A stretch of 64,000 bases of DNA from Minisyncoccota bacterium (GCA_035549255.1 DASZRD010000009.1:49071-113070); one strand, 5' to 3'; shown: positions 3,001 through 20,219, counted from the first letter of the stretch. Translations and numbers: made by a program. Notes: generated by a model from the sequence alone, not told the origin.

Positions 3001-6000
3001 TACATCGGCGACCAGGCGGACGGCAATATATATATAGAAGACATCAGCAACCCGGCGAAGCCGGTCGCACTCTCGCCCTACACCGGTCTCTTGGGCCCGC
3101 AGGCGATCTACATCTCCGGCCGCTACGCCTACGTGGCTGACATTGCAGGCGGCCTCTACGCGCTCGACATCAGCAACCCTGCGAGCGTCTCGCTCGCAGG
3201 GTCGAAGACTGGCACCGGCTACTACACGGTCGAGGTTGCGGGCGACTACGCGTATGTCACCGATTCTTCGGGTAATCTCGTCGTTCTTGACGTTCACAAC
3301 CTTGGCAGCATTACGACCGCAGGCACGTATGCCACTGGCGTGAGCCCGCGCGGGCTTGCGCTCTCGGGCAAGTACGCGTACGTCACCTCCGGCAACTCGA
3401 CCCTCAAGGTGGTCGACATCAATGGCGCCAAGCTCCCGGCGGCTTCCATCGGCACGATTGAGACTAATAGCATCAATGTCGCCGACGCGGTCAAGGTTGG
3501 CGGCGACGGCTTCTTCGGCGGCGGGCTCAATGTCGGGGCTAGCGGCATCTTTAGCCGCGGCGGGCTCGCGGTGCTCGGCTCCACGACGCTGACCGACCTT
3601 ATCGCCAAGAATGCGACTACGACCAACGCGACCTCGACCAATCTCTATGCGTCTTCGCTCATTGCGGGCAATGCGACATCTACCAACCTCTCTGTCTCGG
3701 GCGTGGCCTCGACGTCCAACCTTTATATCTCCAACCTTGTCGCCGGCGCTCTCGCTATTACTGCATCAGGGAAGGCATACAGCTTCTCGACCTCAACGTG
3801 GACCTTCGCTTCGTCAACACTTCTCGGCGACAGCAACACCTTCTCGGGCGGCAATAAATTTACCGGCAACACCACGCTTGCGAATGCTACCTCGACGAAC
3901 TTCGCGCTCACGAACATCACCAACGCGCTGCTTTCTACAAACGCAAATGGTTCGATAATCCCGACTACGATCTCAAGCCCACTTACCTTCAGCGGCAACA
4001 CGCTTTCCATACAGCAGGCGACCGCGTCGCAAAACGGCTACCTGTCTTTAACTGACTGGAATACCTTCAACGACAAGATTTCCTCGACAAGCCTCTCGGG
4101 TGCGTCGGTCATCTCGTACGATTCGTCCTCCGGCGTCATCACCACACAGCCGGGCACCTTCGGCGGCTCGGGCACGTACGCATTCCCGAACGATGTTCAG
4201 GCCAACGGCAATATAACTGCCGAAGTCGATGGCGGCGCAAGTTCCGGCCCGAATATAAATCTCGTAAACTCGGGCGGCTTCGGCGTCGGCGGCATCAACT
4301 TCTTCACCTACGCGGGGCAGACGGTGCCTTCGGCACAATGGGAGGCCGAGGATGTCGGCAACTGGACGGCCGATCAGATCTTCTCGACGAGCGTCGGCGG
4401 AGGGACTGATGCACCGCTTGCGGCCCGCCTCATCATCAAGGGCACGACCGGGTATGTGGGCATCGGCACCACCTCGCCTCTCACGACGCTCTCCGTCGGC
4501 GGCAATACCTACCTTGGCGGCAGCCTCACCGCTACGGGCACGGTGCAATTCTCCAACCTCGCGGCGGGCGCAGTTGCCGCAACCGCCAACGGCCAGCTCT
4601 ACACCTTCTCCACATCGACGTGGACCTTCGCTTCTTCGACGCTCCTCGGCGACAGTAATACGTTCTCTGGCAATGATACGTTCACCACTGCTCCCAAGCT
4701 CGGCTCTCTGACTGGTTTGGTGGCAGGTAACTCGGGCAATCTCTATGGCCTGTCTACTTCGTCGCTCAACGCCTCGATCACCGGCCAGGCAGGCAATGTA
4801 GCCAACAGCGTCACGTTCAACAACGGCGGCTCGGGCGCCTCAAGCGGCTCGACGTTCAACGGCTCATCGGCCGTCACGATCTCGTACAACACCATTGGTG
4901 CGGTCCCGGCAACCCGTAACATCAACACTACCTTCCCGCTCCAGGGCGGCGGTTCTCTTGCCTCTGACCTCACCATTACCTCTGCCTTCGGTACCACGAC
5001 CACCACCGGCCTTACGCCGAACCAGATCCTCTACACCAATGCCAACGGCGTTCTTACCACCGCGGCGTCCTCGACACTCAACCTCCCGAATGCCGCGCTT
5101 CAGAACTCGAGTGTCACGGTCAACGGCATCACCTGCACGCTCGGGAGCACCTGCACCGTCGCTTCGACGACCCTCCTTGCTAACAGCAACATCTTCAGCG
5201 GCAACAACACGTTCACCGGCAACACGACGCTTGCCAACGCCACCTCGACTAACCTCGCGCTCACGAACATCACGAACGCGCTGCTCTCGACCAACGGCAG
5301 TGGCTCCATCATCCCCACCACAGTCTCTTCGCCGCTCACGTTCTCGGGCAATACGCTCTCGATCCAGCAGGCGAACGGCAGCCAGAATGGCTACCTCTCC
5401 TCGACCGACTGGACTCAATTCAACAACAAAGTCTCTAGCTCGTCGCTCGCGACGATTATCAACTCCGCATACGAGTTCCCAGGCAATGCAACGTCAACGC
5501 AGCTCACATTTAACGGCGGCCTTGTTGCTACGGGCGCAACTACAACCAACCTTGCGGTCACCGGCACTGCATCGACCTCCAACCTCTTCATCTCGAATCT
5601 CGCAGCAGGCGCGCTCGGTATTAACGCATCAGGGAAGGCGTACAGCTTCTCAACCTCGACGTGGACTTTCGCATCCTCGACGCTCCTCTCTGACTCGAAC
5701 ACCTTCAGTGGTAATAACAAGTTCACCAATCCCATTACGCTCGGCACTCTCAACGGCCCGCTCCAGGCCAACAACGGCGTCGTCTCGGCAACCTCGTCGG
5801 TCGGCGTCCTCTACGGCGGCACGGGCCTCACGAGTGCGCCTTCATATGGCAATATCCTCGTCGGCAATTCGTCGGGCGGGTATACGCTCACCGCTACGTC
5901 TTCTCTCGGCCTCGCATCGCTCTCATCCTTCTCCGCCACTGCGCCGCTCTCGTACGATTCTTCAACTGGTGTCTTCTCGATCAGCCAGGCCAACGGCAGC

Positions 6001-9000
6001 CAGAACGGCTACCTTTCTTCGGTTGATTGGACTGCCTTCAACAACAAGATCAGCAGCACGAGCCTCTCGGGCGGCACGGGCATCAATTACACCAGTTCGA
6101 CCGGCGTCATCACCAACACCGGCGTCATCGCGGTCGGCCCGGCAGGCCAGACGCAGAACGGTACGGTAACGATCGCTTCGACCACCGCATCGTTTAACGG
6201 CCTTACCTTCGGGGTGCAGACTGTTGGCGCGGCCGGCACGCTCACCAATACGCCGACCATCGCTGGCACGCTCGACAACTCGGGCCTCACGCACTCGACC
6301 ATCGGTCTCGCCGACGCCAACTCGACGCTTACGGTTTCGGGCTCTCCGGCTGCGCTCGGCGCCAGCCTCTCCGCCACCCTCAACCTCGCGCACGGCAACA
6401 TTTGGACTGCGGCCTCGACCACCTTTGTCGGAGGGGTCACGATCGGCTCGGCCACGACGACCAACCTTGTCGCAACCAATGCCACGACCACTAACCTGGC
6501 GATCACCAGCCTTGCCAACACGCTTCTCTCCGTCAATGCGCAGGGGGCTGTGGTTGCCACCTCTTCGCTCTCGGTCAACTATCTTGCGGGCGTGCTGCCG
6601 GTCGGCAACGGCGGCACGGGCTCCTCGACGCTCGGCGGCATTCTCACGGGCAATGGCACGGGCCAAGTTACATCCGCACAGGTCTCGAGCCCGCTCACGT
6701 TCTCCGGCAATACGCTCTCGATCCAGGCTGCGAGCGGCTCGCAGAACGGCTACCTCTCCTCGACCGATTGGACGACATTTAACAACAAGATCTCCAGCAC
6801 GTCGCTCTCCGCATCCGCGCCGCTCTCGTACAATTCTTCGACTGGCCAATTCTCTATTTCGCAAGCCAATGGTTCTACGAACGGTTATCTGACCTCGAGC
6901 GACTGGACGCAATTTAATGCCAAAGTCTCAAGCTCCTCGCTCGCGCTCGTCATCAATCAGGCATACGAATTCCCGAACAACGCGACCTCGACGCAGATCG
7001 CGTTCAACGGCGGGCTTACCGCGGCAGGCGCCACGACGACTAATTTGAGCGTGAGCGGCACTGCATCGACTTCAAATCTCTTCATCTCCAACCTCGCTGC
7101 CGGTGCTCTCGGTATCAATGCGACAGGGAAGGCGTACAGTTTTTCTACCTCGACCTGGACCTTCGCTTCGTCAACATTGCTTGGCGACAACAACACGTTC
7201 TCTGGCACCGATACCTTCACCAACGCTCCAAAACTCAGCACGTTGACTGGCCTCATCAGCGGCAACTCTGGCACTCTCTATGGCACAGCGACTGGTACGG
7301 TTTCGGGTAGCAATGGTATCTCGGTCACCGCAGGCCAGTCGATCATCGGAAGCGGCCTCACGATCACAGCAACCAATGCCGTGGCAGATGCTTCGACCAA
7401 GGGCGTCGCCACGTTTGCTGCCAACGACTTCAACGACAACGGCTCGGGGCTCATCTCGATCGATTATGCAAACGGCCAGCTCGCGAGCGGCAGCCAGAAC
7501 GGCTTCCTCTCGAACTCTGACTGGAACTCATTTAACTCGCGCCTCTCGACCACAACACTCGGCCTCTTCGACAAGGGTTACTTCTTCTCAACCACTTCCG
7601 CGTCGTACTTCCTCGCACAGAATCAGGGCAACGCATTCTCCACGACATCCGCGATCTACTTCGCTAATGCTTCGACTACCATCCCGAAGACCTATACCGC
7701 CAACACCTTCACCGGCGCGCAGACGTTCCAGAACGGCATCACGACTAACGCGCTCTCGCTCGGCACGCTCTCGGGCCCGCTCCAGGCCAACAACGGCGTC
7801 GTCTCCGCCACCAGCTCGATCGGTGTCCTCTATGGCGGCACGGGCCTCACGTCAGCACCGTCCTATGGCACTATCTTGGTTGGCAATTCTTCGGGCGGTT
7901 ATACGCTCACCGCAACTTCGAGCCTCGGCCTCGCGGCGCTATCGTCCTTCTCGGCAACCGCTCCGCTCCAGTATGACAACACGACCGGCATCTTCTCGAT
8001 CACGCAAGCCAACGGTAGCACCAACGGCTACCTTTCTTCGGTTGATTGGACTGCCTTCAACAACAAGATCTCGAGCACCTCGCTCAGCGCCACCGGCCCG
8101 CTCTCGTACAATCCGTCGACCGGCGTGTTCGCGATCTCCCAAGCGAACGGCTCTACGAACGGCTACTTGAGCAGCACTGACTGGAATACGTTCAATCAAA
8201 AGGTTTCCTCGTCCTCGCTTTACTCGTACGTGGCAGGGAACAAAGACTGGCAGATAATAAACGGCGCCCTCAGCCCGACCACCACGCTCGGCATCGGCGT
8301 GTACGCCTCCTCGACCATCGGCAATGGCGCGCAGAGCGGCGGCCTCACCGTAAACGGCGGCGCGACAACAACCGGCAACGCGTACTTCGCGGGGAACGTC
8401 GGCATCGGTACCCAGTCGCCGAGCGCGCGGCTCGATATCAATGCTTCGTATACGACTACCGGCTTCCCGCTCAGCGTTAAAAATTCGGGGTATTACAACG
8501 CCTACTTCCAGGGCACGAACGCCAACAACCAGGCGTCCTTCTATATGGAGAATGACCGCGGCTCATTCGCATCCTACGGCGGATTCCTCTACGGCGGCTC
8601 TACCAGCGGCCTCTCGAACCTCTTCGGCGCGCCGCGCGCGGATCGCCTGTTCATGTTTGCCGATGGCGCATCGAACCTCGGTTATTACGTCGGAACCCTT
8701 ACGGCGCAGCCATTCGTGATCGGCACGAACAATCTTGAGCGCGCGCGAGTCGACGGCACGACCGGGTATGTGGGCATCGCCACCACGTCGCCGCTCACGA
8801 CGCTCTCCGTCGGCGGCAATACCTATCTCGGCGGCAATCTGACTGCGACCGGCACGGTACAGTTCACAAATCTTTCTGCTGGCGCGGTTGCCGCAACTGC
8901 CAATGGCACGCTCTACACCTTCTCCACCTCGACGTGGACCTTCGCTTCATCGACGCTCCTTGGCGACAATAACACGTTCTCTGGCAACAACACATTCACG

Positions 9001-12000
9001 AATGTTCCGAAGTTGGGCGGCCTGACTGGTCTAGTGGCAGGGAACTCGGGTAATCTCTACGGACTCTCCACCACATCCCTCAACGCCTCGATCACCGGCC
9101 AGGCAGGCAATGTAGCCAACGCCGTCACCTTCAACAACTCCGGCTCCGGCGCATCCTCAGGCTCGACCTTCAACGGCTCGTCGGCGGTAACGATCTCGTA
9201 CAACACGATTGGTGCACAGGTTGCTGGTACGTATGTCACATCAGTAGGTGCAACCTACCCGCTCATCTCTTCGGGCGGCACCGCGCCGGTCATCTCCAGC
9301 GCCTTTGGTACGAGTACTAATTGGGGTCTTGGTGCCAACGGCATCGTCGTAACCAATGCCAGCGGCGTGCCGTTCATTGCGGCGTCTTCAACACTCAACC
9401 TCCCGAATTCCGCGCTCCAGAACTCGACCATAACCGTCAACGGCATCGCCTTCAACCTCGGCGACAGCAAGACCATTACCGCCGCAAGCTCGACCCTCCT
9501 TGCTAACAGCAACACCTTCTCAGGCAACAACACGTTCACCGGCAACACCACGCTCGCAAATGCGACCTCAACCAACCTCGCGCTCACGAACATCACGAAC
9601 GCGCTGCTTTCGACCAATGGCAGCGGCTCCATCATCCCGACAACCGTCTCCTCGCCGCTCACGTTCTCTGGCAACACGCTCTCGATCCAGGCGGCGAGCG
9701 CTAGCCAGAATGGTTACTTAAGCAGCACTGACTGGACCCAGTTCAACAACAAAGTCTCTAGCTCGTCGCTTGCTGCTGTAGTTAATCAGGCCTATGAATT
9801 CCCGAGCAACGCGACTTCGACCCAGATCGCGTTCAACGGCGGACTTACTGCAACGGGCGCAACTACCACTAACCTCTCGGTCACCGGCACTGCATCGACC
9901 TCGCAGCTCTATATATCTAATCTCTCAACCGGCGGTCTTGGTATTAGCTCGACAGGGAAAGTCTACTCGTTTGCAACGTCTACCTGGACTTTCGCATCGT
10001 CGACGCTCCTTGGCGACAGCAACACCTTCTCCGGCAACAACACGTTCACCAATGCGCCGAAGCTCGGAAGCCTTACCGGGCTCGTGGCAGGTAACTCGGG
10101 CAATCTCTATGGCCTGTCTACTTCATCGCTCAATGCAAGCATCACTGGCCAGGCCGGAAATGTCGCCAACAGCGTCACGTTCAACAACGGCGGCTCGGGC
10201 GCCTCAAGCGGTTCGACGTTCAATGGCAGCGGTGCACTTACGGTTTCCTACAACACTATCGGGGCGCAAGTTGCGGGGACGTATGTCACTTCGGTCAATG
10301 CAACGTATCCGCTTCTCTCGAGCGGCGGCACCGCGCCGACAATCTCGACCGCCTTCGGCACCACCACCAACACCGGTATTGGCTCCAACCTCTTCATCTA
10401 TACCGACAACAATGGCGTCTTCAAGGGTGCCGCTTCTTCCTCCCTTAACCTTCCGAACTCGGCGCTCCAGAATTCGAGTATTACTATCAATACGAGCGGC
10501 GGACTCACCGGCGGTGCAGCGGTCTCGCTCGGCAACTCGATTTCGCTCGGCTGCCAGGCCGCATCGGGGAGCCAGGCGGGCTGCCTCTCCTCGACCGACT
10601 GGACGACGTTCAATAACAAAGTTTCCTCAAGCTCGCTTGCCGCGCTCAATTACGCCGCATATCCGTTCTACGCGGCAGGGAATGCCACGACGACCCTTAC
10701 GCAGTTCAACGGCGGCCTGACTGCGTATGCGTCGAGCACCATCGGCAACGGTATTCTCGGCCTTACCGTCAACGGCCCGGCGACGACGACGGGCAACCTC
10801 GTCGTGCAGGGAAGCGGCACCTCGACCATTGCGGGCAGCCTCTCGGTCTCCGGTAACCTCAACTTCAACGGCAACTTGCTCCAGAATGGCGTACCCTTCA
10901 GCTCGAGCCAGTGGATTACGAACGGCTCGAGCATCTACTACGGCACGGGCAATGTCGGCATCGGCACCTCGACTCCCTACGCCAAGCTCTCGGTCGCGGG
11001 CGATATCGTGGGCGGGACCATCAACGCCACTTCGACCACGGCCACCTCGACCATCGCGGGCAGCTTCAATGTCGGCAACGGAGCGCTTAGCTACGACGTC
11101 AATTCCGGCATCACTTCTATTAATAATCTCCAATTGGGCGCGCAGACCTTCGACGCCGACGCGGGCATCCTCTCGTGGATCGACATGCCGGTGACCTCGG
11201 CCTCTTCGGCCGGTACGGTAGAGTCTTACAGCGCCCAGATAGACGGCAACCCGCTCCTTACTATATATAGTCAGTCCGACGGCAGCGGCGGCATCCAGAA
11301 TGCGGCCGTAGGTATCGGCACTACCTCGCCGTTCGCCATGCTTTCGGTGCAGGGCAGCGGCTACCTCGCGGGCAGCCTCACGATCACGGGCATCACTGCG
11401 ACCGGTACGGTGCAATTGACCTCCCTCACTGGCGGCGCAGTTGCGGCCAACCCCAACGGCACGCTGTATACCTTCGCGACCTCGACGCTTACTTCCGCCT
11501 CATCGACCCTCCTCGGCGACAGCAACACCTTCTCCGGCAACAACACGTTCACCAATGCGCCGAAGCTCGGAAGCCTTACCGGGTTCGTCGCCGCGAACAA
11601 CGGCACGCTCTATCAGCTTGCCTCCTCCTCGCTCAATCTTCCGAACGCCGCGCTCCAGAATTCGAGCATTACGATTAACGGCACCGCCTTCAATCTTGGC
11701 GACAGCAAGACGGTCGCGGCTGCATCCTCGACACTCCTCGGCGATACCAACACGTTCAGCGGCACGCAAAACGCCTTTACTAACAAGGTTGGCATCGGCA
11801 CCACCAGCCCCCGCACGACGCTCCAGGTAGCGGCGGGCGGCTCGGGCATCCTGCCCCAGGCGAGCAGCATCGCCGCGTTCGAGAGCAACAGCAATGGCTA
11901 CATCTCCCTCCTCACTCCGGACAGCGCGGAGAACGGCCTCCTCTTCGGCAGCCCGACGGGGGGCAACGCCGACGCCGGGATCATCTACAACAACAATACA

Positions 12001-15000
12001 AACCTGCGCGGCCTCACCTTCCGCACCGGCGGCAACAACACCCACATGGTCATAGACTCCTCGGGCAATGTCGGTATCGGCACCACCAGCCCGGGTGCCA
12101 CCTTCGCCGTAGCGGGCGACGGATACCTGACCGGCGCTCTTACGGTCGGCGGCCAGACCACGCTTGCTGCATCGCTCAATGGCTTGCTCAAAGCCACGAA
12201 CGGCGTCGTCTCGGCTGCTGTAGCAGGAACCGACTACAGCAACTTCGCATATCCGTTCCCGCTCACCGGCAACGCAACCTCATCCCTTACCCAATTCAAC
12301 GGCGGACTCACGGCATATGCGACTTCCACGATCGGCAACGGCGCGCAGGCGGGCGGCCTCACCGTAAGCGGTGGCGCGACGACGACGGGGAATGCGTACT
12401 TTGGGGGGAATGTTGGTATTGGGACCAACGCCCCGACCAGCGCGCTCACGCTCGCACTGGGCAACTCGATCGCCCTCTACAATACCGCCGACCAGACGAC
12501 CAACTACGAGCGCGGCCAGATTGATTGGACCTCAAACGCTCTACGCATCGAGACCGTGGGCGGGGGAAGCGGCTCCAACTCGAGAAGCGTCATTCTCTCC
12601 TCCGGCGGCGCGAACCTGGTGACCGCATCCGCAGGTACGGTCAAGGTAACGCTCAACGGCGGCACCTCGGGCGTCGGCCCGGGCGTCCTCACGAACGGCT
12701 CCTTCAACGGTGCTTCGACTAATCAGGTCGTGCAGTCGATCGCGCCAACCTTCAACCAGTCGGGCACCTCGGGCTATACCGCGCTCTTGATCCAACCGAC
12801 CGAAACCGCCGTCGGCTCGGGGAATAAGTACCTTATCCAGGCCGGCACCAGCACGGCGGCGACGCTCTTCGCCGTCGACAACGCGGGGAATATCACCACC
12901 AATATCACCGGCTCGACGCAATGCCTCCATGTCAATTCGTCCGGCGTTATCTCGGGCACTGGGGCTGACTGCGGCGCCGGCGGCTCGCCGTTCCCATTCA
13001 CGCCGCTCGCGCTCGGCAACGCGACGTCAACCCTGCTTCTCCTCAACAACGGCGTCATTGCCGCAGCGTCTTCAACGATCGGTAATGGTACTGCCGCGGG
13101 CGGTCTCACCATTAACGGTTCAGCTACCTCGACTGGTACGACTACTATCCAAAACGCATTTGCGGTCACAGGCACCAACGGCGGCGTTCCGGTCTCCGGC
13201 GCCGGTACTCGGCTCGAGTTTATTCCTAATCTGGGTGCGCTCCGAGCTGGACAAGTTTCTAGCACCCAGTGGGATGCTTCAAATATCGGCACTTCTTCTT
13301 TCGCGACCGGGCTTGATACTACAGCCTCTGGAGGTTACTCGGCGGCTTTGGGTTATCGAGCGACGGCAAGCGGTGTAGGATCATTTGCCGGCGGCTACTT
13401 TACCGATTGTGGAATGGGTATTATCTCCAGCGGCATTGGCTCGTTTGCATACGGCTATCTTAATCATGGTGTAACAGGCTGCGCGTTTACCCAGATACAG
13501 GCCTCTGGAAATGGCTCAGTTGCTATGGGATATGCGCTTGCCGGTAGAACCATTACTGCTACTCAATCTGGTTCGATCGCTCTCGGTTATGCGAATAACG
13601 GAAGCATTACATCGTCCGGCATTGGTTCATTTGCGGTTGGTGATGGCAATATTACTTCTTCGGGCAGTGGTTCCGTGGCCTTGGGCTATGGCGAGAGCGG
13701 CCTCCTTAGTGCCACTGGACAGGGTGCAGTCGCGATTGGCGCCAATGTTAACGCTACCCAGAACAACGCTCTCGCTTTCGGCTCCTCGTTCACCAACAAC
13801 ATCGCATCCACCTTCCAGGTCGGATTCTCCGCGACACCGACACTCACGGTCACCGCGACGAATACCGGCATCGGCACCACGTCGCCGTACGCCAAGTTCT
13901 CCATCTCTGCCAACGGCAGTGACACCAATAGCACTCTCTTTGCCATTGCATCTTCCACGAGTGGTACTGCAACCTCGACCTTGTTTGCAGTCTCTAACAT
14001 CGGCACTATTACCACCACGCTCGGTGCTGGTGCAGTCGGTGTGAACTCCCTCGGCCAGCTCTACAGCTTCGCTACTTCCTCGGGTTCGGCGGCGTCATCG
14101 ACTCTCCTTGCCGACTACAACACGTTCTCCCACCTCCAGCAATTCAACGGTGGCTTCACGGCGTATGCTTCTTCGACCATTGGCAATGGCGCGCAAATCG
14201 GCGGGCTCACCGTAAGCGGCGGCGCTACGACCACGGGCAACGCGTACTTCGCGGGCAACGTTGGCGTCGGGACAGTATCGCCTGGCTCGACGCTCGATGT
14301 TGGCGGCACGGCGCAGCTGCGCGGCGCGGGCGGTGGGACGGGACTGTATGTCAACAGCAGCGGCAACGTCGGCATCGGTACTACTGGGCAGAATGCCAAG
14401 CTTGAGATCCGCCAGGACGGCAATGGAGTCCAAACCCAGCTCGTCTTGCGCAATAACCAGGGCTCGAGCAATGGCGCGACATCGCGCTTGGGCTTCGGCG
14501 TCTACCGCGATGTCGACGCAACGGCGCTCGGCGCCGCGATCGATGCGATCACCACAGCAGGCATCCCGAACGGCGACAACGCCGAGGGCGCGATCCTCGC
14601 CTTTAGCACGACTAAGGATGGTACTTCCGGCCTGCAGGAGCGCATGCGCATCCTCAACACTGGCAATGTCGGCATCGGTACCAAGAATCCTCAGGCAACC
14701 CTCGACGTCCAGGGCACTGCATCATCGAGCAACCTCTTCGTTACCAACGCTGCCACCACCACCAGCCTTGCGATCACTGGTCTTACTTCGCAGTCCTGCA
14801 TCGGTACCAACTCGCAGGGCCAAGTCGTCGCGGGCACCTGCGGCGGAGGCGGCTCACCATTCCCATTCACGCCGTCTGCGCTTGGCAACTCGACTTCGAC
14901 TCTGCTTCTCCTCAACAACGGCGTCATTGCCACAGCGTCTTCCACAATCGGTAACGGAACAGCGACAGGTGGGCTCACGGTCAACGGCAATTCGACGACG

Positions 15001-18000
15001 ACCGGCAACGTCTACGTTGCCGGTGCCATCGGTATCGGTACCAAGAGCCCATGGGCCTCGCTCGACGTGAATGGCAGCATTGCGATCGCCAACAACAACG
15101 GCGGCAGCACCAACAAGCTCTATCTCGCCTCAGGCGACGGCACGCACTATATATATTCGACCGGTTCTGGCGTGGGCGGCAACAACACCTACTTCGGTGA
15201 ATGGGGCGGCAACTATCACTTCCTCGATACGAGCAATTCGTCCGAGCCGGTTACTATTACCGGAGGCAATCTTGGTGTCGGGACCACGACGCCGACTGCA
15301 AAACTCTCGCTCCAGTACAACTCGGGCGATACGCAGACGACTCTCTTCGCGATCGCGTCCTCAACCGGCAGCACAGCGGTAAACCTCTTCTCGGTCGACA
15401 ATACCGGGCTCACGACGATTGGCAATCCGACCGGTACCGGCGACGCGAATATCCAGTTCGGCGGCGACGCTACGGCATGGTCGGTCGGCAACTACGGGGG
15501 CGACAATTCCTTCCGTATTGCATCCTCGACCAACCTTGCCAACAACGTAGCCTTCGAAGTTACTAAGGCCGGTACCGCCTCGACAACGAACCTTACCATT
15601 TCTTCGCTCGGGGCTTCAGCTGGCAGTTGTCTCACCACCGATTCAAGTGGCAATGTGACAACCACTACATGCGGCGGAGGCGGCTCACCATTCCCATTCA
15701 CGCCGTCTGCGCTTGGCAACTCGACTTCGACTCTGCTTCTCCTCAACAACGGCGTCATTGCCGCAGCGTCTTCCACAATCGGTAATGGCAATCAGAACGG
15801 CGGTCTCACAGTGAGCGGTGGTGCCACCACAACCGGCAACGCGTACTTCGCTGGAAATGTAGGGATTAATAATACTCTTGCAGTTGGGGGGAACGTGGTT
15901 ACTTCCGGAGCGCAGATAGACTCTGCTGGGGTCATTTACTCTCATGGAACCGGAGGCATTAGCTTTGCCTTGAACAGCACTGGCAGTAATTATGGAACCA
16001 TCCAGAATGATGCGCCCGACACATGGTCTCTGGGTACCAACAGTATGCTCACTGGTCTCGGTACGCACGTTCTAACTTGGACAAAGGCTGGCAACATCGG
16101 CATCGGTACCTCGACGCCGGCCAGCCTCCTCACGGTAAGTAATAGCAATACGGGCACACTCACGTACGACGGCACGTCGCTTACGGTCTCGCCGGTCGGT
16201 ACTACGACGACCGCAGGCGCTGTGACCATCACGCCGGGAGCGGCGGGAGGTCCGGGCCTCGGCATCAAAGGATTCAATGGTAACAGCATCGCGCAAATCT
16301 TCACATCCTCCGGCAGCCTCCGCACGCTTCAGATAACTAATACCGGCGCGGGTGGTCTTCAGACAGTCTTTGCGGGCGGTACTGGCAAGAACTTGATCGG
16401 CATCGGGACGACATCGCCGTTTGCTCCGCTCTCAATAGCGGCCAACGGTGGCGACACTAACCCGACACTTTTTGCGATCTCCAGCTCAACCGCCGCCTTT
16501 GCTACCACGACGCTCTTCTCGGTCTCCAACACCGGCTCGACCACCATCGCCAACGGTGTCAACATCACGAGCGGCTGCTACGCGGTCAACGGTACCTGCC
16601 TCTCGACCGGTGGTAGCGGCGGCTCACCATTCCCATTCACGCCGTCTGCGCTTGGCAACTCGACTTCGACCCTGCTTCTCCTCAACAACGGCGTCATTGC
16701 TTCCGCATCCTCGACCATCGGCAACGGTACTGCCGCAGGTGGGCTCACGGTCAATGGCAATTCGACGACGACGGGGAGCCTCTATACTGGCGGCGGTATC
16801 ACGATTGCAGGCACGAACCCGAGCTTCGTATCCCTTTCGGAAAATAACGGCGGGGTTAGCTTCATTAACTATCTCGGCAGCGGCAGTGACGGCACTGGGA
16901 CTTATATCACTAACACATCGAACCATTCTCTGTTCCTCGGCACCAATAATACGACCAAGCTTACGATCGCTGCGGGCGGCAACGTTGGCATAGGCTCAAC
17001 CACGCCGGGCACCCTTCTCTCGATCGGCAGCGTCAACGGCATTAACTTCACCACGGCGACCTCGACCTTCAATTCGACCGGCGGCATCAATATTACGAAC
17101 GGCTGCTATGCGGTGAACGGCGTTTGTCTCACGACCGGCGGCGGGAGCAGCCAATGGACCACGAGCGGCTCGAGCATCTACTACAACACCGGCAGTGTCG
17201 GCGTCGGCACCTCTTCACCGTTCGCCAAGTTCTCGGTCCAGCAGAATTACGGCGACACGCAGACGACGCTCTTCCAGATCAGCTCGTCGACGGCTACCGG
17301 CGGCGCAACCGCTAACTCCTTCTTCTCGGTCGACAATACCGGCCTCACGACGATTGGCGATCCTTCCGGCACCGGCGATGCGAACTTCCAGTTCGCCAAT
17401 GACAACCACGCCTGGTCGGTCGGCTACTATGCGGGCGACAACTCCTTCCGCATCGCGTCGGGCACGTCGCTTGCCTCCAACCCGGCTATCTCCGTCGATA
17501 AGAATGGCACGACGACCATATCCAACGGCGTCAACATACAGTCGGGCTGCTTCTCGGTACAGGGGACGTGTCTCAGCTTCTCGAGCGGAGCCGCGGACTC
17601 GCAATTCGTTAGTACCGACGGTCAGGCGAACATCACCACCTCGACGACCTCGCTCGCCACCATCAGCATCACGCCTTCCACGGCGACTGGCGACGTCTTT
17701 GTCAGCGCGAAGGTAAGCATGTCTTCCAAGACGGCCACCGACTTTATTACCAGCATTGCTGTTCGGGATACGACCTGCACCGGCACGATCTTTGCCCAGG
17801 CGATGGCGAGCTCGACCTCCGCGTCCGGCTCCAACGGTTCGACCGCCTTTGCCAACGGCCTCGAGAACAACCCTGGCACGACGAGCCAGACATACGCGCT
17901 GTGCGCGAGCGATACGTCAGGGACCAACCCGGCGACCTACTTCCTCTCGGCACTCGTCATCAACCCCGGCGCCGACGTGGCAGAGCTTTACTCGACGCTC

Positions 18001-19170
18001 GATGCCGGTATTCAGCCTGGCGACATCGTTTCGGCAGATACGACGCATTTCGAGGGTGTGCGCAAGAGCAGCCCGTATGCTGATTCGCAGCTGATGGGCG
18101 TCGTCTCCACCAACCCGAGCGTCGTCATCGGTACCCCGGTCAATCAAAACGGCAATATCGTGCCGATCGCCTTGCGCGGCCGCATCCCGGTGAAGGTCAA
18201 CCTCGAGGGCGGCGATATCGCCGTGGGCGACCGGATCACGCTCTCGTCGGTGTCAGGCGTCGGCAAGAAGGCGGGTGACCTCGACCAGAGCATCGGCATC
18301 GCTCTTGAGCCGTTCACCGCGCAATCGACGACCACCTCCGTGCTCGTGTTCCTCGACATGCAGCAGGGCGACAACGTCGGCGCGCTCACTAATACTCTGC
18401 TCGGCACCTCGACCGCCACCAGCACTGCTACCAGCACGCCGCAAACAGGCTTTCTCTCGGTGCTCTTCTCCCGCATCGCGAGCTGGCTCGGGGGCGCTGG
18501 CAACGGCATCGCGAACATCTTCACGCAGACGCTCACGGCGACCGTCGTCAACGCCGATACGGTCAACACCAAGCAGCTCTGCATCACCGACGCCTCGGGC
18601 GGCAAGACCTGCGTCACCAAGGCCCAGCTCGACCAGCTCCTCCAGGGCCAGGGAGGTAGCGCGGGCTCTGGCGCAGGGTCCGGTTCAGGTTCGGGCGGCG
18701 CAGGATCGGGCAGCGGCACGACGATGCCCGCAAGCCCCGACCCTGACGCGCCGACGATCACGATCAATGGCGCCAACCCGGCGATGCTCGTGGTAGGCGA
18801 CACGTATGCCGACCTTGGCGTGACGGTGAGCGACGCGCAGGATCAGAATCTCGGCTACCTCGTTTCGCTCGACGGTGCTGCGACCACGACGCCCGACCAG
18901 ATCCATATCGACACGTCGGCCGCAGGAACGCATACCATCACGTACGTCGCGACCGATAACGACGGCAATGTCACGACCGCGCTGCGCACCGTAATCGTCC
19001 AGGATGCGGCGAGCTCGACGCCGTCCGTGCTTCCGCCGGTTGATACGGGCGATACCGGTACCACGACCGGAAGCGGCGCCGATGCGGGCGGCACGGCGAC
19101 CTCGACCGATGCCGGGGCGGGTGCCGGTACCGCACAGGGCGGCGAGGGCACGACTACTCCGGCGGAGTAA
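1..19170 (+). CDS. Giant repetitive cell-surface protein, 5'-partial; more than 6387 aa lie in the window
   Basis: The open frame continues from base 1 with no stop upstream of 7 and ends at TAA 19168-19170. It is Ser/Thr/Gly/Asn-rich. Its parts are 44-aa SQNGYLSS-DWT-FNNK repeats, an LVIVD-like propeller, repeated CGGGGSPFPFTP modules, a GS linker and an Ig-like C-terminus. Confidence 0.85.
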   Translation, partial: AVVGDNSFTFDGTTLNAPAAVFTTLTNLGSANLGTVSTGVWHGTAIADSYVADNLTISGGTINNTPIGAATPSTAVFTNATSTNATTTNFYASGQTRLGSLTGLVSANGGIVTAVATNTLGLLGSTSLSATAPLAYNSSTGVFSISQASGSQDGYLASVDWTQFNNKVSSTSLSATGPLAYNPATGVFSLDQAGTSQDGYLSSADWNVFNNKISSSSLSAAGPLSYNSSTGQFTISQASGSQNGYLSSGDWTIFNNKVSSSSLALVINQAYPFPQAGNGTSTLTQFNGGITAYASSTISALTSIFATTSSFAILNVPSALLTTNAQGQVVATSTLGVAYGGTGSSTLGGILIGNGRGSVTSANVSAPLSFSGNTLSIQAASGSQNGYLSSADWTTFNNKISSTSLSAAAPLSYNSSTGQFTISQASGSQNGYLSSSDWNSFNARLSTTTLGLFDKGYFFSTTSADYYLSQQSLVGFSTTSANYWKTQNNFFSTTSAIYFANASTTIPKTYTANTFTGAQTFQNGITTNALSVGSLTGPLQAIGGVVSSTSTLSIIYGGTGTSTPPTYGKVLLGNAQGGYDLVGTSSLGLITNNSLSAIVPLQYNTGTGVFSIQNAKADSSTLGAATFASNDFNDNGSGLISIDYANAQKATGSQAGLLASSDWNVFNNKISSSSLSGASVIAYNGTTGVISTQAGTFGGNASSVYTFPGDLVTTGTATTTNLYIGGTISGANLSSCSGASDKLLWNSSTQQFSCGTDAGASGSDVNWTHFNNSGIRVTTATDQVLIGFTSTSSLSKLEVHGGATIDNATTTNLVTTGVAYFSGNVGIGTTSPYQSLTVASGNILQVAGSNPTLATSTAVGGSTYGVYTSGNYAYVAAGSVRIVDTTQPGASKVVGSYTGTTQAQSIVVSGKYAYVGDASAGLAILDVSNPASPTLVGSLNYSTVGHPLSIALSGRYLIVPDFDSGKVSVVDIANPAAPAVVGTYTTGGAPATVALSGKYAYIGDQADGNIYIEDISNPAKPVALSPYTGLLGPQAIYISGRYAYVADIAGGLYALDISNPASVSLAGSKTGTGYYTVEVAGDYAYVTDSSGNLVVLDVHNLGSITTAGTYATGVSPRGLALSGKYAYVTSGNSTLKVVDINGAKLPAASIGTIETNSINVADAVKVGGDGFFGGGLNVGASGIFSRGGLAVLGSTTLTDLIAKNATTTNATSTNLYASSLIAGNATSTNLSVSGVASTSNLYISNLVAGALAITASGKAYSFSTSTWTFASSTLLGDSNTFSGGNKFTGNTTLANATSTNFALTNITNALLSTNANGSIIPTTISSPLTFSGNTLSIQQATASQNGYLSLTDWNTFNDKISSTSLSGASVISYDSSSGVITTQPGTFGGSGTYAFPNDVQANGNITAEVDGGASSGPNINLVNSGGFGVGGINFFTYAGQTVPSAQWEAEDVGNWTADQIFSTSVGGGTDAPLAARLIIKGTTGYVGIGTTSPLTTLSVGGNTYLGGSLTATGTVQFSNLAAGAVAATANGQLYTFSTSTWTFASSTLLGDSNTFSGNDTFTTAPKLGSLTGLVAGNSGNLYGLSTSSLNASITGQAGNVANSVTFNNGGSGASSGSTFNGSSAVTISYNTIGAVPATRNINTTFPLQGGGSLASDLTITSAFGTTTTTGLTPNQILYTNANGVLTTAASSTLNLPNAALQNSSVTVNGITCTLGSTCTVASTTLLANSNIFSGNNTFTGNTTLANATSTNLALTNITNALLSTNGSGSIIPTTVSSPLTFSGNTLSIQQANGSQNGYLSSTDWTQFNNKVSSSSLATIINSAYEFPGNATSTQLTFNGGLVATGATTTNLAVTGTASTSNLFISNLAAGALGINASGKAYSFSTSTWTFASSTLLSDSNTFSGNNKFTNPITLGTLNGPLQANNGVVSATSSVGVLYGGTGLTSAPSYGNILVGNSSGGYTLTATSSLGLASLSSFSATAPLSYDSSTGVFSISQANGSQNGYLSSVDWTAFNNKISSTSLSGGTGINYTSSTGVITNTGVIAVGPAGQTQNGTVTIASTTASFNGLTFGVQTVGAAGTLTNTPTIAGTLDNSGLTHSTIGLADANSTLTVSGSPAALGASLSATLNLAHGNIWTAASTTFVGGVTIGSATTTNLVATNATTTNLAITSLANTLLSVNAQGAVVATSSLSVNYLAGVLPVGNGGTGSSTLGGILTGNGTGQVTSAQVSSPLTFSGNTLSIQAASGSQNGYLSSTDWTTFNNKISSTSLSASAPLSYNSSTGQFSISQANGSTNGYLTSSDWTQFNAKVSSSSLALVINQAYEFPNNATSTQIAFNGGLTAAGATTTNLSVSGTASTSNLFISNLAAGALGINATGKAYSFSTSTWTFASSTLLGDNNTFSGTDTFTNAPKLSTLTGLISGNSGTLYGTATGTVSGSNGISVTAGQSIIGSGLTITATNAVADASTKGVATFAANDFNDNGSGLISIDYANGQLASGSQNGFLSNSDWNSFNSRLSTTTLGLFDKGYFFSTTSASYFLAQNQGNAFSTTSAIYFANASTTIPKTYTANTFTGAQTFQNGITTNALSLGTLSGPLQANNGVVSATSSIGVLYGGTGLTSAPSYGTILVGNSSGGYTLTATSSLGLAALSSFSATAPLQYDNTTGIFSITQANGSTNGYLSSVDWTAFNNKISSTSLSATGPLSYNPSTGVFAISQANGSTNGYLSSTDWNTFNQKVSSSSLYSYVAGNKDWQIINGALSPTTTLGIGVYASSTIGNGAQSGGLTVNGGATTTGNAYFAGNVGIGTQSPSARLDINASYTTTGFPLSVKNSGYYNAYFQGTNANNQASFYMENDRGSFASYGGFLYGGSTSGLSNLFGAPRADRLFMFADGASNLGYYVGTLTAQPFVIGTNNLERARVDGTTGYVGIATTSPLTTLSVGGNTYLGGNLTATGTVQFTNLSAGAVAATANGTLYTFSTSTWTFASSTLLGDNNTFSGNNTFTNVPKLGGLTGLVAGNSGNLYGLSTTSLNASITGQAGNVANAVTFNNSGSGASSGSTFNGSSAVTISYNTIGAQVAGTYVTSVGATYPLISSGGTAPVISSAFGTSTNWGLGANGIVVTNASGVPFIAASSTLNLPNSALQNSTITVNGIAFNLGDSKTITAASSTLLANSNTFSGNNTFTGNTTLANATSTNLALTNITNALLSTNGSGSIIPTTVSSPLTFSGNTLSIQAASASQNGYLSSTDWTQFNNKVSSSSLAAVVNQAYEFPSNATSTQIAFNGGLTATGATTTNLSVTGTASTSQLYISNLSTGGLGISSTGKVYSFATSTWTFASSTLLGDSNTFSGNNTFTNAPKLGSLTGLVAGNSGNLYGLSTSSLNASITGQAGNVANSVTFNNGGSGASSGSTFNGSGALTVSYNTIGAQVAGTYVTSVNATYPLLSSGGTAPTISTAFGTTTNTGIGSNLFIYTDNNGVFKGAASSSLNLPNSALQNSSITINTSGGLTGGAAVSLGNSISLGCQAASGSQAGCLSSTDWTTFNNKVSSSSLAALNYAAYPFYAAGNATTTLTQFNGGLTAYASSTIGNGILGLTVNGPATTTGNLVVQGSGTSTIAGSLSVSGNLNFNGNLLQNGVPFSSSQWITNGSSIYYGTGNVGIGTSTPYAKLSVAGDIVGGTINATSTTATSTIAGSFNVGNGALSYDVNSGITSINNLQLGAQTFDADAGILSWIDMPVTSASSAGTVESYSAQIDGNPLLTIYSQSDGSGGIQNAAVGIGTTSPFAMLSVQGSGYLAGSLTITGITATGTVQLTSLTGGAVAANPNGTLYTFATSTLTSASSTLLGDSNTFSGNNTFTNAPKLGSLTGFVAANNGTLYQLASSSLNLPNAALQNSSITINGTAFNLGDSKTVAAASSTLLGDTNTFSGTQNAFTNKVGIGTTSPRTTLQVAAGGSGILPQASSIAAFESNSNGYISLLTPDSAENGLLFGSPTGGNADAGIIYNNNTNLRGLTFRTGGNNTHMVIDSSGNVGIGTTSPGATFAVAGDGYLTGALTVGGQTTLAASLNGLLKATNGVVSAAVAGTDYSNFAYPFPLTGNATSSLTQFNGGLTAYATSTIGNGAQAGGLTVSGGATTTGNAYFGGNVGIGTNAPTSALTLALGNSIALYNTADQTTNYERGQIDWTSNALRIETVGGGSGSNSRSVILSSGGANLVTASAGTVKVTLNGGTSGVGPGVLTNGSFNGASTNQVVQSIAPTFNQSGTSGYTALLIQPTETAVGSGNKYLIQAGTSTAATLFAVDNAGNITTNITGSTQCLHVNSSGVISGTGADCGAGGSPFPFTPLALGNATSTLLLLNNGVIAAASSTIGNGTAAGGLTINGSATSTGTTTIQNAFAVTGTNGGVPVSGAGTRLEFIPNLGALRAGQVSSTQWDASNIGTSSFATGLDTTASGGYSAALGYRATASGVGSFAGGYFTDCGMGIISSGIGSFAYGYLNHGVTGCAFTQIQASGNGSVAMGYALAGRTITATQSGSIALGYANNGSITSSGIGSFAVGDGNITSSGSGSVALGYGESGLLSATGQGAVAIGANVNATQNNALAFGSSFTNNIASTFQVGFSATPTLTVTATNTGIGTTSPYAKFSISANGSDTNSTLFAIASSTSGTATSTLFAVSNIGTITTTLGAGAVGVNSLGQLYSFATSSGSAASSTLLADYNTFSHLQQFNGGFTAYASSTIGNGAQIGGLTVSGGATTTGNAYFAGNVGVGTVSPGSTLDVGGTAQLRGAGGGTGLYVNSSGNVGIGTTGQNAKLEIRQDGNGVQTQLVLRNNQGSSNGATSRLGFGVYRDVDATALGAAIDAITTAGIPNGDNAEGAILAFSTTKDGTSGLQERMRILNTGNVGIGTKNPQATLDVQGTASSSNLFVTNAATTTSLAITGLTSQSCIGTNSQGQVVAGTCGGGGSPFPFTPSALGNSTSTLLLLNNGVIATASSTIGNGTATGGLTVNGNSTTTGNVYVAGAIGIGTKSPWASLDVNGSIAIANNNGGSTNKLYLASGDGTHYIYSTGSGVGGNNTYFGEWGGNYHFLDTSNSSEPVTITGGNLGVGTTTPTAKLSLQYNSGDTQTTLFAIASSTGSTAVNLFSVDNTGLTTIGNPTGTGDANIQFGGDATAWSVGNYGGDNSFRIASSTNLANNVAFEVTKAGTASTTNLTISSLGASAGSCLTTDSSGNVTTTTCGGGGSPFPFTPSALGNSTSTLLLLNNGVIAAASSTIGNGNQNGGLTVSGGATTTGNAYFAGNVGINNTLAVGGNVVTSGAQIDSAGVIYSHGTGGISFALNSTGSNYGTIQNDAPDTWSLGTNSMLTGLGTHVLTWTKAGNIGIGTSTPASLLTVSNSNTGTLTYDGTSLTVSPVGTTTTAGAVTITPGAAGGPGLGIKGFNGNSIAQIFTSSGSLRTLQITNTGAGGLQTVFAGGTGKNLIGIGTTSPFAPLSIAANGGDTNPTLFAISSSTAAFATTTLFSVSNTGSTTIANGVNITSGCYAVNGTCLSTGGSGGSPFPFTPSALGNSTSTLLLLNNGVIASASSTIGNGTAAGGLTVNGNSTTTGSLYTGGGITIAGTNPSFVSLSENNGGVSFINYLGSGSDGTGTYITNTSNHSLFLGTNNTTKLTIAAGGNVGIGSTTPGTLLSIGSVNGINFTTATSTFNSTGGINITNGCYAVNGVCLTTGGGSSQWTTSGSSIYYNTGSVGVGTSSPFAKFSVQQNYGDTQTTLFQISSSTATGGATANSFFSVDNTGLTTIGDPSGTGDANFQFANDNHAWSVGYYAGDNSFRIASGTSLASNPAISVDKNGTTTISNGVNIQSGCFSVQGTCLSFSSGAADSQFVSTDGQANITTSTTSLATISITPSTATGDVFVSAKVSMSSKTATDFITSIAVRDTTCTGTIFAQAMASSTSASGSNGSTAFANGLENNPGTTSQTYALCASDTSGTNPATYFLSALVINPGADVAELYSTLDAGIQPGDIVSADTTHFEGVRKSSPYADSQLMGVVSTNPSVVIGTPVNQNGNIVPIALRGRIPVKVNLEGGDIAVGDRITLSSVSGVGKKAGDLDQSIGIALEPFTAQSTTTSVLVFLDMQQGDNVGALTNTLLGTSTATSTATSTPQTGFLSVLFSRIASWLGGAGNGIANIFTQTLTATVVNADTVNTKQLCITDASGGKTCVTKAQLDQLLQGQGGSAGSGAGSGSGSGGAGSGSGTTMPASPDPDAPTITINGANPAMLVVGDTYADLGVTVSDAQDQNLGYLVSLDGAATTTPDQIHIDTSAAGTHTITYVATDNDGNVTTALRTVIVQDAASSTPSVLPPVDTGDTGTTTGSGADAGGTATSTDAGAGAGTAQGGEGTTTPAE
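382..777 (+). repeat. Three tandem 132-bp (44-aa) repeats 'LSA..PL.YNSSTG.F.ISQASGSQ(N/D)GYLSS.DWT.FNNK.SS.S'. More copies are dispersed at about 1080-1320, 3960-4090, 5320-5460, 5890-6080, 6680-6930, 7930-8220, 9630-9770 and 10540-10640.
   Basis: Found by direct inspection of the translated giant ORF and its DNA. Confidence 0.8.
2560..3440 (+). repeat. Eight '(S/A)G.YAYV...L.(I/V)(L/V)D(V/I)SNPA.P..VG.Y' blades, matching the LVIVD-repeat beta-propeller pattern, inside the giant protein
   Basis: The unit recurs every ~40 aa: SGNYAYVAAGSVRIVD..., SGKYAYVGDASAGLAILDVSNP..., SGRYLIVPDFDSGKVSVVDIANP..., SGKYAYIGD..., SGRYAYVADIAGGLYALDISNP..., AGDYAYVTDSSGNLVVLDV..., SGKYAYVTSGNSTLKVVDI... Confidence 0.6.
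14851..14958 (+). repeat. ~100-bp near-identical intragenic direct repeat, copy 1 (GGSPFPFTPSALGNSTSTLLLLNNGVIA module)
   Basis: An ~81-bp stretch 'ggctcaccattcccattcacgccgtctgcgcttggcaactcgacttcgac(t/c)ctgcttctcctcaacaacggcgtcattgc' starts at 14851, 15682 and 16621 and differs at only one base in the third copy. A diverged copy sits at ~12982. Confidence 0.85.
15682..15789 (+). repeat. ~100-bp near-identical intragenic direct repeat, copy 2
   Basis: See copy 1. Confidence 0.85.
16621..16730 (+). repeat. ~100-bp near-identical intragenic direct repeat, copy 3
   Basis: See copy 1. Confidence 0.8.
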
Positions 19171-19183
19171 TATATAAAGATCC

Positions 19184-20158
19184 ATGAAAAAATGGCTGAT
19201 CATCGGTTTGCTTATCCTCGCCGTCGGGGTGTCCCTGGGTTTGTGGGCGTCGCGCATGCTTGTAAGGAGCGCGCCTTCCTGCTCGGCAGAGTATCCGTTG
19301 CTGGACGACTCCGTCGGATGCGACGATGCGCAGCCCGTCATAACCAAGACGAGCTATACCGCGCTGCAGCAGAGCCTGCTTGCATACATACAAAATGAGA
19401 AGAGTTCGGGGGACACGGCCGATATAGCGATCTTTTTCCGCGACCTTAAGGACGGACCGGTGTTCGGCATCAACGAGCTTGAGGATTTTACGCCCGCGAG
19501 CCTGCTGAAGCTCCCGCTGGCGTTCGCCTATCTCAATGTCGCCGACGAGTACCCGGATTATCTGCAGAAGGAGCTCTTCTATACCGGTACCTCGTCCGTG
19601 ATCGATCAGAATTTCCCGCCCCCCGTCTCCGTCAAGGCCGGGCAGCCGTATACGCTCGAAGAGCTTCTGCAGTACATGATTTCGTACTCCGACAATGGCG
19701 CCTACCAAATGCTCAACGATTATCTCGCTGGCGACCCGAGCCGCAAGGTCCTCCTCGACCAGACCTTCCAGGAGCTCGGTATCATCGACCCCGCGAGCGA
19801 GGATGCGAACACGGTCAGCGTGCGGAGCTATGCGTCGCTCTTCCGGCTGCTCTACAGCGCGGCGTATATCAGCCCCGACCACTCGCAGCTCCTCCTCCAG
19901 TGGCTCTCGGACTCGTCCTTTACCCAGGGGCTGGTTGCGGGCGTACCCGAAGGGGTCACCGTCGCCCACAAATTCGGCGAGCGCTCATTGCCGGACGGCA
20001 CGAAGCAGCTCCATGACTGTGGCATCGTCTATTTTCCGGAGAACCCCTACATCTTGTGCGTCATGACGAAGGGGAGCGACTGGACCAAGCTTGAAGGCGT
20101 GTTGCGGACCGTCTCGCAAATGGTCTATGCGGAAGTCTTATCGAGGAAGCAGAACTAG
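19184..20158 (+). CDS. Membrane-anchored serine hydrolase with a class A beta-lactamase / PBP-like fold
   Basis: It has an N-terminal TM helix, an S-x-x-K motif (PASLLKLP), an SDN motif (YSDNGA) and a K-x-G motif (HKFGE). Its start is 13 nt after the giant gene's stop. Confidence 0.6.
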   Translation: MKKWLIIGLLILAVGVSLGLWASRMLVRSAPSCSAEYPLLDDSVGCDDAQPVITKTSYTALQQSLLAYIQNEKSSGDTADIAIFFRDLKDGPVFGINELEDFTPASLLKLPLAFAYLNVADEYPDYLQKELFYTGTSSVIDQNFPPPVSVKAGQPYTLEELLQYMISYSDNGAYQMLNDYLAGDPSRKVLLDQTFQELGIIDPASEDANTVSVRSYASLFRLLYSAAYISPDHSQLLLQWLSDSSFTQGLVAGVPEGVTVAHKFGERSLPDGTKQLHDCGIVYFPENPYILCVMTKGSDWTKLEGVLRTVSQMVYAEVLSRKQN

Positions 20159-20199
20159 CGGGCTTGAACGCGCGAGGAATTAATTTCTGATTAGGTATG

Positions 20200-20208
20200 T
20201 GCGATAAT
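20200..20208 (+). promoter_or_regulatory. Candidate extended -10 promoter element TGcGATAAT, 11 nt upstream of the ATG of cassette 1
   Basis: TG at 20200-20201 is followed by GATAAT at 20203-20208. The same architecture sits at 24745-24753 before cassette 2. Confidence 0.4.
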
Positions 20209-20219
20209 AATAGAACGAT

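Follow-up and report, generated by a model that had tools for sequence, protein, structure and literature searches.

In the adhesins of Gram-positive cocci (alpha C/Rib, SasG/Aap and Esp), whole tandem units are near-identical. In the T-even phages, conserved motifs that flank variable segments of the fibre genes gp37/gp38 reportedly mediate the exchange of modules, a finding attributed to Tetart and colleagues in 1998. Mosaicism of tail-fibre genes has also been noted elsewhere (PMC2993671). The cagY gene of Helicobacter pylori carries 43–52 direct repeats of at least 16 nt per kb, which are in frame and give rise, within hosts, to variants of different size (Aras et al. 2003, PMC2194252). 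Passages of Caulton et al. (2024, PMC10769870) describe the mosaic adhesive trimer (MAT) fibres of Bdellovibrio bacteriovorus, a bacterium living on other bacteria, as phage-tail-fibre-like structures of the cell surface with S74 and non-S74 subfamilies and a modular, mosaic build. Here we analyze a giant gene at the beginning of a 64,000-nt stretch of DNA from a Minisyncoccota bacterium (GCA_035549255.1 DASZRD010000009.1:49071-113070; "the window", with positions counted from its first letter), whose product resembles a modular tail fibre. The DNA of the junctions that open three of its modules is identical or nearly identical; the module bodies are old, of different types and saturated at synonymous sites. 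We consider it likely that these junction repeats have been homogenized by short-tract gene conversion within the gene.

The repeats are genuine and statistically unambiguous, and they open four successive modules, M1 to M4 (Table 1). Copies 1 and 2, at the start of M2 and M3, are identical over 93 bp, the longest exact direct repeat in the window, and at 115 of 116 positions when extended to 14954 and 15785. An exact 53-mer of copy 3 (16618-16670) is common to both of them; in 100 shuffles it had no match at up to three mismatches, against three matches observed. The M1 copy is diverged, with exact runs of 41 and 32 bp in common with copies 2 and 3. An earlier sequence-only reading of the window had reported 81 bp identical at every base at 14851 and 15682, and this stretch, with 0 mismatches, proved to lie within the longer 93-bp tract; the diverged copy that it placed at 12982 is also present (10 of 81 mismatches). 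The copy at 16621, said to have a single changed base, has two within the 81 when set against that at 14851: T>C at 16671 and C>T at 16701. Likewise, the approximately 25 near-identical flanking bases ascribed to all three copies exist downstream of copies 1 and 2 (2/25 mismatches), together with 12 bases upstream, whereas the other flanks have 7–14 mismatches in 25. All four copies are in the same reading frame, as had been stated (frame 0 of the open reading frame [ORF] 7..19170), and the reported spacing of 0.8–1.9 kb was measured as 1869, 831 and 939 bp between successive copies from M1 to M4, or 623, 277 and 313 codons, with 1770 bp separating copies 1 and 3. No silent cassettes or inverted copies were detected elsewhere in the window, either on both strands at up to three mismatches or in a six-frame search with hidden Markov models.

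The second Cys of a Cys-Cys pair marks where each copy begins, and the encoded peptide, GGGGSPFPFTPSALGNSTSTLLLLNNGVIA, is the start of a module; the motif ASSTIGNG..GGLT..GGATTTGN, found throughout the family, comes next. A Cys-Cys hairpin, followed by a Gly linker and SPFPFTP...LLLLNNGVIA, makes up the junction that opens each module; five more, looser versions of it occur in the giant gene. The exact tract lies upstream of the ASSTIGNG motif, which is the most conserved segment of the family and does carry synonymous differences. In the giant gene as a whole (19.2 kb) there are 93 maximal pairs of direct repeats of at least 16 nt, or 4.9 per kb, as against none in a 19-kb block of housekeeping genes, and their spacing is divisible by 3 in every case (93/93). 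Seventeen exact repeats are at least 30 bp long. The pair 10012-10080/11515-11583 and 15 further pairs form exact islands of 30–69 bp at other conserved motifs, such as GDSNTFSGNNTFTNAPKLGSLTG and NGYLSSVDWTAFNNKI; these are spaced 0.5–6 kb apart and are all in frame.

The identity of the junctions goes beyond what conservation of the protein would produce. In the M2-M3 island, 31 of 31 consecutive codons are identical where 14.5 would be expected (P = 10^-10.8 under the codon usage of this gene), and because eight of the island codons are rare (GGA, TCA, CCA twice, TCT, ACT twice and CTG, each with 5–14% usage), codon bias cannot explain the identity. By contrast, in a gapped alignment of the M2 and M3 bodies the same codon was used at identical residues 30 times, against 35.6 expected, and in all module bodies the same-codon counts were at or below random expectation, indicating that synonymous sites are saturated; in-register identity outside the island was at the random level. 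The M1 copy encodes nearly the same peptide, yet with synonymous differences and commoner codons, so the nucleotide sequence is not obligatorily fixed. Among mosaic sites within 200 bp, six support the grouping M2M3|M1M4 and eight support M2M4|M1M3; these numbers are small. The junction peptides find their best matches in each other (78–90% identity) and reach at most 75% with proteins of other genomes. The bodies of M1 and M3, two of the four, have their best matches in other genomes, for example 54% over 311 amino acids (aa) with protein P0001, and no recent duplication of module bodies was found in the giant gene. A tract free of synonymous differences between saturated flanks is the mark left by recent homologous exchange and points to a recombination-active sequence, and the codon, body, mosaic and relationship evidence taken together argues for concerted evolution by short-tract gene conversion and excludes a recent duplication of whole modules.

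Under this explanation, homologous recombination between the junctions, with tracts of approximately 50–120 bp, would maintain their identity. The likely driver would be a feedback loop, in which the conserved motif preserves the identity that recombination needs to start, and every conversion then renews it. The tracts have the length and the phase for crossover or slippage, which would lead to the seamless loss or duplication of whole modules and, through such events, to altered fibre length and module content. Because all of the repeats are in frame, recombination between copies would remove or add exactly 277, 313 or 590 codons, and the in-frame deletion or duplication of modules of 275–315 aa that the sequence-only reading had proposed is thus geometrically possible, the units of 277, 313 and 590 aa falling at a natural module boundary. 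Its idea of a recombination substrate is geometrically right and indirectly supported, and it is unproven; "antigenic variation" in an environmental Paceibacterota bacterium is speculation. What it overlooked is the informative signal, namely concerted evolution restricted to the junction and recurring across the family.

The junction pattern recurs independently in distant relatives. An S74-type fibre gene of more than 1,942 aa on contig L001, from a metagenome-assembled genome (MAG) with 37% guanine plus cytosine (GC), has five junction copies (GGTGSAFPFTPTLFGSTNANSTSTLIGFTNGIYSLASSTIGNGNQNGGLTISGG...) with 148–293 bp of exact identity. In its islands 55 of 55 codons are identical against 23 expected; the bodies are at random expectation, and so is the in-register identity outside the islands. 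These five copies are identical to one another on a nucleotide sequence different from that of the window's junction. Exact direct repeats of at least 50 bp were found in 27 of 48 related loci, many of them centred on the hairpin-junction 'GCYAVNGTC..GG', and in some relatives the exact repeats extend over 0.3–0.7 kb, which suggests recent module-scale events. Two long exact repeats, of 710 bp in L030 (7782-8491/9080-9789) and 306 bp in L016 (4540/7985), have a spacing that is not a multiple of 3; each falls in two adjacent ORFs, suggesting neighbouring paralogous genes or a frameshift or assembly error in those MAGs. When close relatives of the giant gene were sought through its unique C-terminal 555 aa, none turned up in the collections covered: metagenome contigs gave only one fragment, of 1.5 kb and 71% identity, and the best match among 5.8 billion proteins had 45% identity. 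The exact 53-mer was not found in JGI metagenome contigs.

Several considerations weigh against gene conversion as the explanation. Conversion events are deduced, and module-count variants predicted, from the sequence alone, and exact identity may be slightly overstated, since nearly identical copies of a repeat can be merged during short-read assembly (bulge removal). Recombination machinery (RecA etc.) is encoded outside the window. The roughly twofold enrichment of islands near Cys-pair junctions in the related fibre loci (53 of 125, against a per-residue baseline of 17%) speaks for conversion, but the test is approximate and takes account neither of island length nor of the non-independence of copies, and 58% of the identity islands lie away from junctions. 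Finally, the giant fibre is probably trimeric, a description that relies on weak similarity of fold and family (module pLDDT, the predicted local distance difference test, of 64.7).

The alternative that survives best holds that the junctions are recombination linkers under selection, kept identical because selection favours lineages able to shuffle, delete or duplicate fibre modules, both inside the gene and between paralogous fibre genes, and thereby to alter host or partner specificity. The repeats would then constitute a dedicated variation system and not a by-product of conversion, a proposal that is compatible with the data, is not required by them and seems to us unlikely. It would account for junction-centred islands in distant lineages of differing GC content, for the enrichment of islands at module boundaries and for a single junction that joins different ancient module types; moreover, every possible event is in frame, the 0.3–0.7-kb exact repeats of relatives suggest recent module-scale events, and cagY of H. 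pylori provides a precedent (PMC2194252). However, no variant alleles were seen, the giant gene is without recent module duplication, over half of the islands are not near junctions, and the repeat density is about 10 times below that of cagY (4.9 against 43–52 per kb). Second-order selection is, moreover, difficult to demonstrate, and the data can be explained without it.

The sequence-only reading was right about the assembly hazard. A k=31 assembly made independently from run SRR12170510 stops precisely where a 32-bp repeat common to M1 and M4 ends; its Logan contig L050 starts at 16671 and is 100% identical to the window over 16671-21787. L001 (1-5871) and L002, two contigs of the same MAG (CAZVQB01), both end inside the equivalent repeat, so their gene has probably been fragmented by it. 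Short-read assemblies of such genomes fall apart at the junction repeats of their largest genes, or can join the pieces in the wrong order, and module counts of giant proteins derived from MAGs should therefore be treated as provisional. It is nonetheless improbable that the pattern itself is an artefact, in the sense that bulge-popping or consensus calling made the copies identical or that the order or number of modules reflects a chimeric path through the repeat. The window contig does come from a short-read MAG assembly, the 93-bp repeat is longer than common k-mer sizes, and the breaks just described also speak for an artefact. Assemblers do not create repeats, however, and the most that one could have done is to remove a few of the differences within the island. 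Reads of 150 bp are able to span a 93-bp repeat. The copy-specific bases at 16671 and 16701 and the diverged flanks were retained, the Logan contig starts exactly where the repeat map of the window predicts, and the same pattern is present in MAGs from different assemblers, as told by their NODE_ and k141_ contig names.

Purifying selection alone, whether on the peptide or on an RNA or DNA element that requires the sequence (a translational pause, a structure or an internal start), is a very improbable source of the identity. The junction motif is conserved at the protein level across the family and the island does contain a cluster of rare codons, but a constraint on the protein predicts approximately 14.5 identical codons and not 31, and the synonymous-site contrast largely refutes this explanation. 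In M1 nearly the same peptide is encoded with synonymous changes, and in relatives identity within the genome is held on entirely different nucleotide sequences. Two candidate elements were rejected: an RNA element, as the folding z-score was −0.05 and Rfam gave no credible match, only a sub-threshold chance match to a microRNA elsewhere; and an internal start or Shine-Dalgarno reading of the GGAGG in copies 1 and 2, which is missing from copy 3 and has no in-frame start codon after it. A rare-codon pause is not supported, given the common codons of the M1 copy. We also rejected a target of a diversity-generating retroelement, because the differences between copies are mixed (T>C, A>G, T>G, C>T) and not adenine-specific; the scanned ORFs of the window included no reverse transcriptase.

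We give hardly any credence to the idea that whole modules were recently duplicated in tandem and that their bodies then diverged very fast. The modules do have a common architecture, and one subdomain is 65% identical between M2 and M4. Synonymous sites, however, are saturated in the bodies and unchanged in the junction, although neutral sites should diverge equally in both; the bodies of M1 and M3 resemble proteins of other genomes more than they do neighbouring modules; and Tandem Repeats Finder detects no array.

Table 1. Junction repeats, modules and domains of the giant gene, in window coordinates.
Feature	Position	Strand	Basis or remark
Junction repeat copy 1, opens module M2	14839..14954	+	14839-14931 exact match to copy 2; encodes C-GGGGSPFPFTPSALGNSTSTLLLLNNGVIA
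Junction repeat copy 2, opens module M3	15670..15785	+	15670-15762 exact match to copy 1
Junction repeat copy 3, opens module M4	16618..16700	+	53 bp exact, mismatch at 16671, then 29 exact bases
Diverged junction copy, opens module M1	12970..13073	+	10/81 mismatches against copy 1, several of them synonymous
Cys-Cys hairpin C4931...C4945, closes the preceding module	14797..14841	+	Cys positions; beta-hairpin in model
Equivalent Cys pairs	12922-12972, 15628-15672, 16576-16599	+	Cys positions
Module M2 body (module of 277 aa)	14955..15627	+	Synonymous sites saturated against other modules; one subdomain 65% identical to M4
Module M3 body (module of 313 aa)	15786..16575	+	Best matches are proteins of other genomes, not neighbouring modules
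Second identity island	10012..10080	+	69 bp exact, equal to 11515-11583; encodes GDSNTFSGNNTFTNAPKLGSLTG
Giant ORF	1..19170 (ORF 7..19170)	+	5'-truncated by the window; treated as a modular tail-fibre-like surface protein
LVIVD beta-propeller repeats	2593..3432 (approximate limits, from sequence landmarks)	+	Pfam PF08309, E=3.7e-54, 7 stretches; N-terminal part
Bacterial surface Ig-like domain, DUF5011 type	18748..19005	+	Pfam PF16403, E=7.6e-12; near C-terminus

The giant protein comprises 6,387 aa within the window and 7,526 aa as the gene is called on NCBI contig CAYTYW010000014.1 (GCA_964442315.1, 177 kb), its N-terminal 1,139 aa lying outside the window. Neighbouring proteins carry the annotation Candidatus Paceibacterota and remain singletons in clusters at 90%, and the gene lies among housekeeping genes of the chromosome (GAPDH, transketolase, aldolase, RF, S2, PheT, GyrB, DnaE and RNase III). 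A Pfam scan of the giant protein gave nothing beyond the LVIVD repeats and the C-terminal surface Ig-like domain, and Peptidase_S74 (PF13884) was not found in it when the C-terminal 2,387 aa and the last 555 aa were scanned. Its homologues all belong to Patescibacteria (Paceibacterota, Kaiserbacteria and others), and many carry Peptidase_S74 together with the same Ig-like domain. PHROG tail-fibre families match two regions of the protein (E=3e-9 and 1e-4). The C-terminal region 17968-18369, which starts with 'GADVAELYSTL...', is without a Pfam domain and is followed downstream by a low-complexity Gly/Ser linker and then the Ig-like domain; a stretch overlapping it matches the PHROG tail-fibre family phrog_19602 (E=1.4e-4).

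A PDB sequence search with modules M2-M3 returned no match. One module was modelled together with both of its junctions as an AF2 monomer, with low confidence (pLDDT 64.7); the Cys pairs came out as beta-hairpins and the bodies as beta-rich, and the junction segment, of below-average confidence, lacked secondary structure, as expected if the motif folded only within an oligomer. The top Foldseek match of the modelled module was the Bdellovibrio fibre Bd2133 (8OND), with a probability of 0.97 but a TM-score of only 0.15, and further matches were T4 gp34, the Mu fibre and phage hyaluronidase fibres. On these similarities we treat the giant protein as a tail-fibre-like surface fibre that resembles the MAT proteins, although its place in any one family is not established.

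Directly downstream of the giant gene lie two very glycine-rich ORFs, 20220-24164 (1,314 aa) and 24765-27608 (947 aa), which together contain 91 in-frame direct repeats of at least 16 nt. The first has four to five units of 'TSGTSWTVP.DW...IEVIGGGGG...GIIVITY'. The second has a Laminin_G_3 domain at its end, and the gene caller used on the record split it into small genes in alternative frames. Each is followed by an ORF of approximately 188 aa (24167-24733 and 27605-28174) with no Pfam match, and because these two are paralogues (49% identity, E=3e-62), we regard the arrangement as a duplicated two-gene unit of unknown function. At position 25040, in a glycine-rich gene, the window has C and the NCBI/collection copy has G, a synonymous change (CGC/CGG); the 20,975 compared bases are otherwise identical. 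Over positions 1-28000, GC skew is strongly negative along the giant gene (−0.05 to −0.20) and strongly positive along the glycine-rich genes (+0.13 to +0.19), a contrast that probably reflects amino-acid composition (Thr/Ser/Ala against Gly codons) and not replication. Farther along the window, a sortase gene (50224-50850) stands among ORFs with weak CARDB or Ig-like matches (48819-53909), a region that may be a small surface-protein cluster; the C-terminus of the giant protein has no obvious LPXTG motif.

Patescibacteria (the Candidate Phyla Radiation, CPR) depend on attachment to other cells, and how they recognize their hosts is largely unknown. If giant fibres vary by the in-frame loss or gain of modules at homogenized junctions, this would be a simple route to new fibre lengths and binding repertoires. 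A bolder proposal, about which we are doubtful, is that a "junction cassette" made up of the Cys hairpin, the Gly linker and FPFTP...ASSTIGNG is conserved in patescibacterial fibre genes and that, in each genome, its DNA is maintained without differences so as to serve as an inbuilt linker for recombination. If this were true, ultrasmall episymbionts could reshuffle, lose or gain fibre modules in frame, both within and between fibre genes, and so retune their attachment to host cells, and the cassette would be a cellular counterpart of module swapping in phage tail fibres.

Among the systems with which the locus can be compared, the Gram-positive adhesins share with it a concerted evolution of intragenic surface-protein repeats that permits in-frame changes of repeat number. 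They differ in how much is identical: here it is only approximately 90 bp at each module start, whereas the bodies of 277–623 aa are saturated and form no tandem array. The MAT fibres are linked to the giant protein by Bd2133, the best structural match of the modelled module, and by the Peptidase_S74 domain that homologues of the giant protein often carry. The TM-score of 0.15 belongs to a low-confidence model, however, no S74 domain is detectable here, and the giant protein is roughly ten times longer. MAT fibres have a conserved N-terminal domain of approximately 130 aa after the signal peptide. The N-terminus of the giant protein lies outside the window, and homogenization of junctions at the DNA level does not appear in the passages of PMC10769870 covered here.

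With the mosaic tail-fibre genes of phages the giant gene shares interchangeable segments bordered by short conserved sequences where homologous recombination can act, and the PHROG matches and the Foldseek matches to T4 gp34 and the Mu fibre support the fibre-like nature of its product. It is, by contrast, a chromosomal gene among housekeeping genes and not a phage gene, its specific family membership is not established, and the apparent process is homogenization within a gene instead of swapping between co-infecting genomes. Like cagY, it is a large surface-protein gene with many short direct DNA repeats in which every recombination event would be in frame, so that the products to be expected have internal segments deleted or duplicated. 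The two proteins are unrelated, one being a type IV secretion component and the other a tail-fibre-like fibre, and the repeat density here is about 10 times lower; size variants have been demonstrated within hosts for cagY and are predicted here from sequence alone. The longest repeats here mark the boundaries of folded modules, which distinguishes the locus from cagY. In-frame repeats in surface proteins and mosaic fibre genes are both already known, and what is modestly new in this comparison is a homogenization that appears confined to module junctions and recurs across Patescibacteria.

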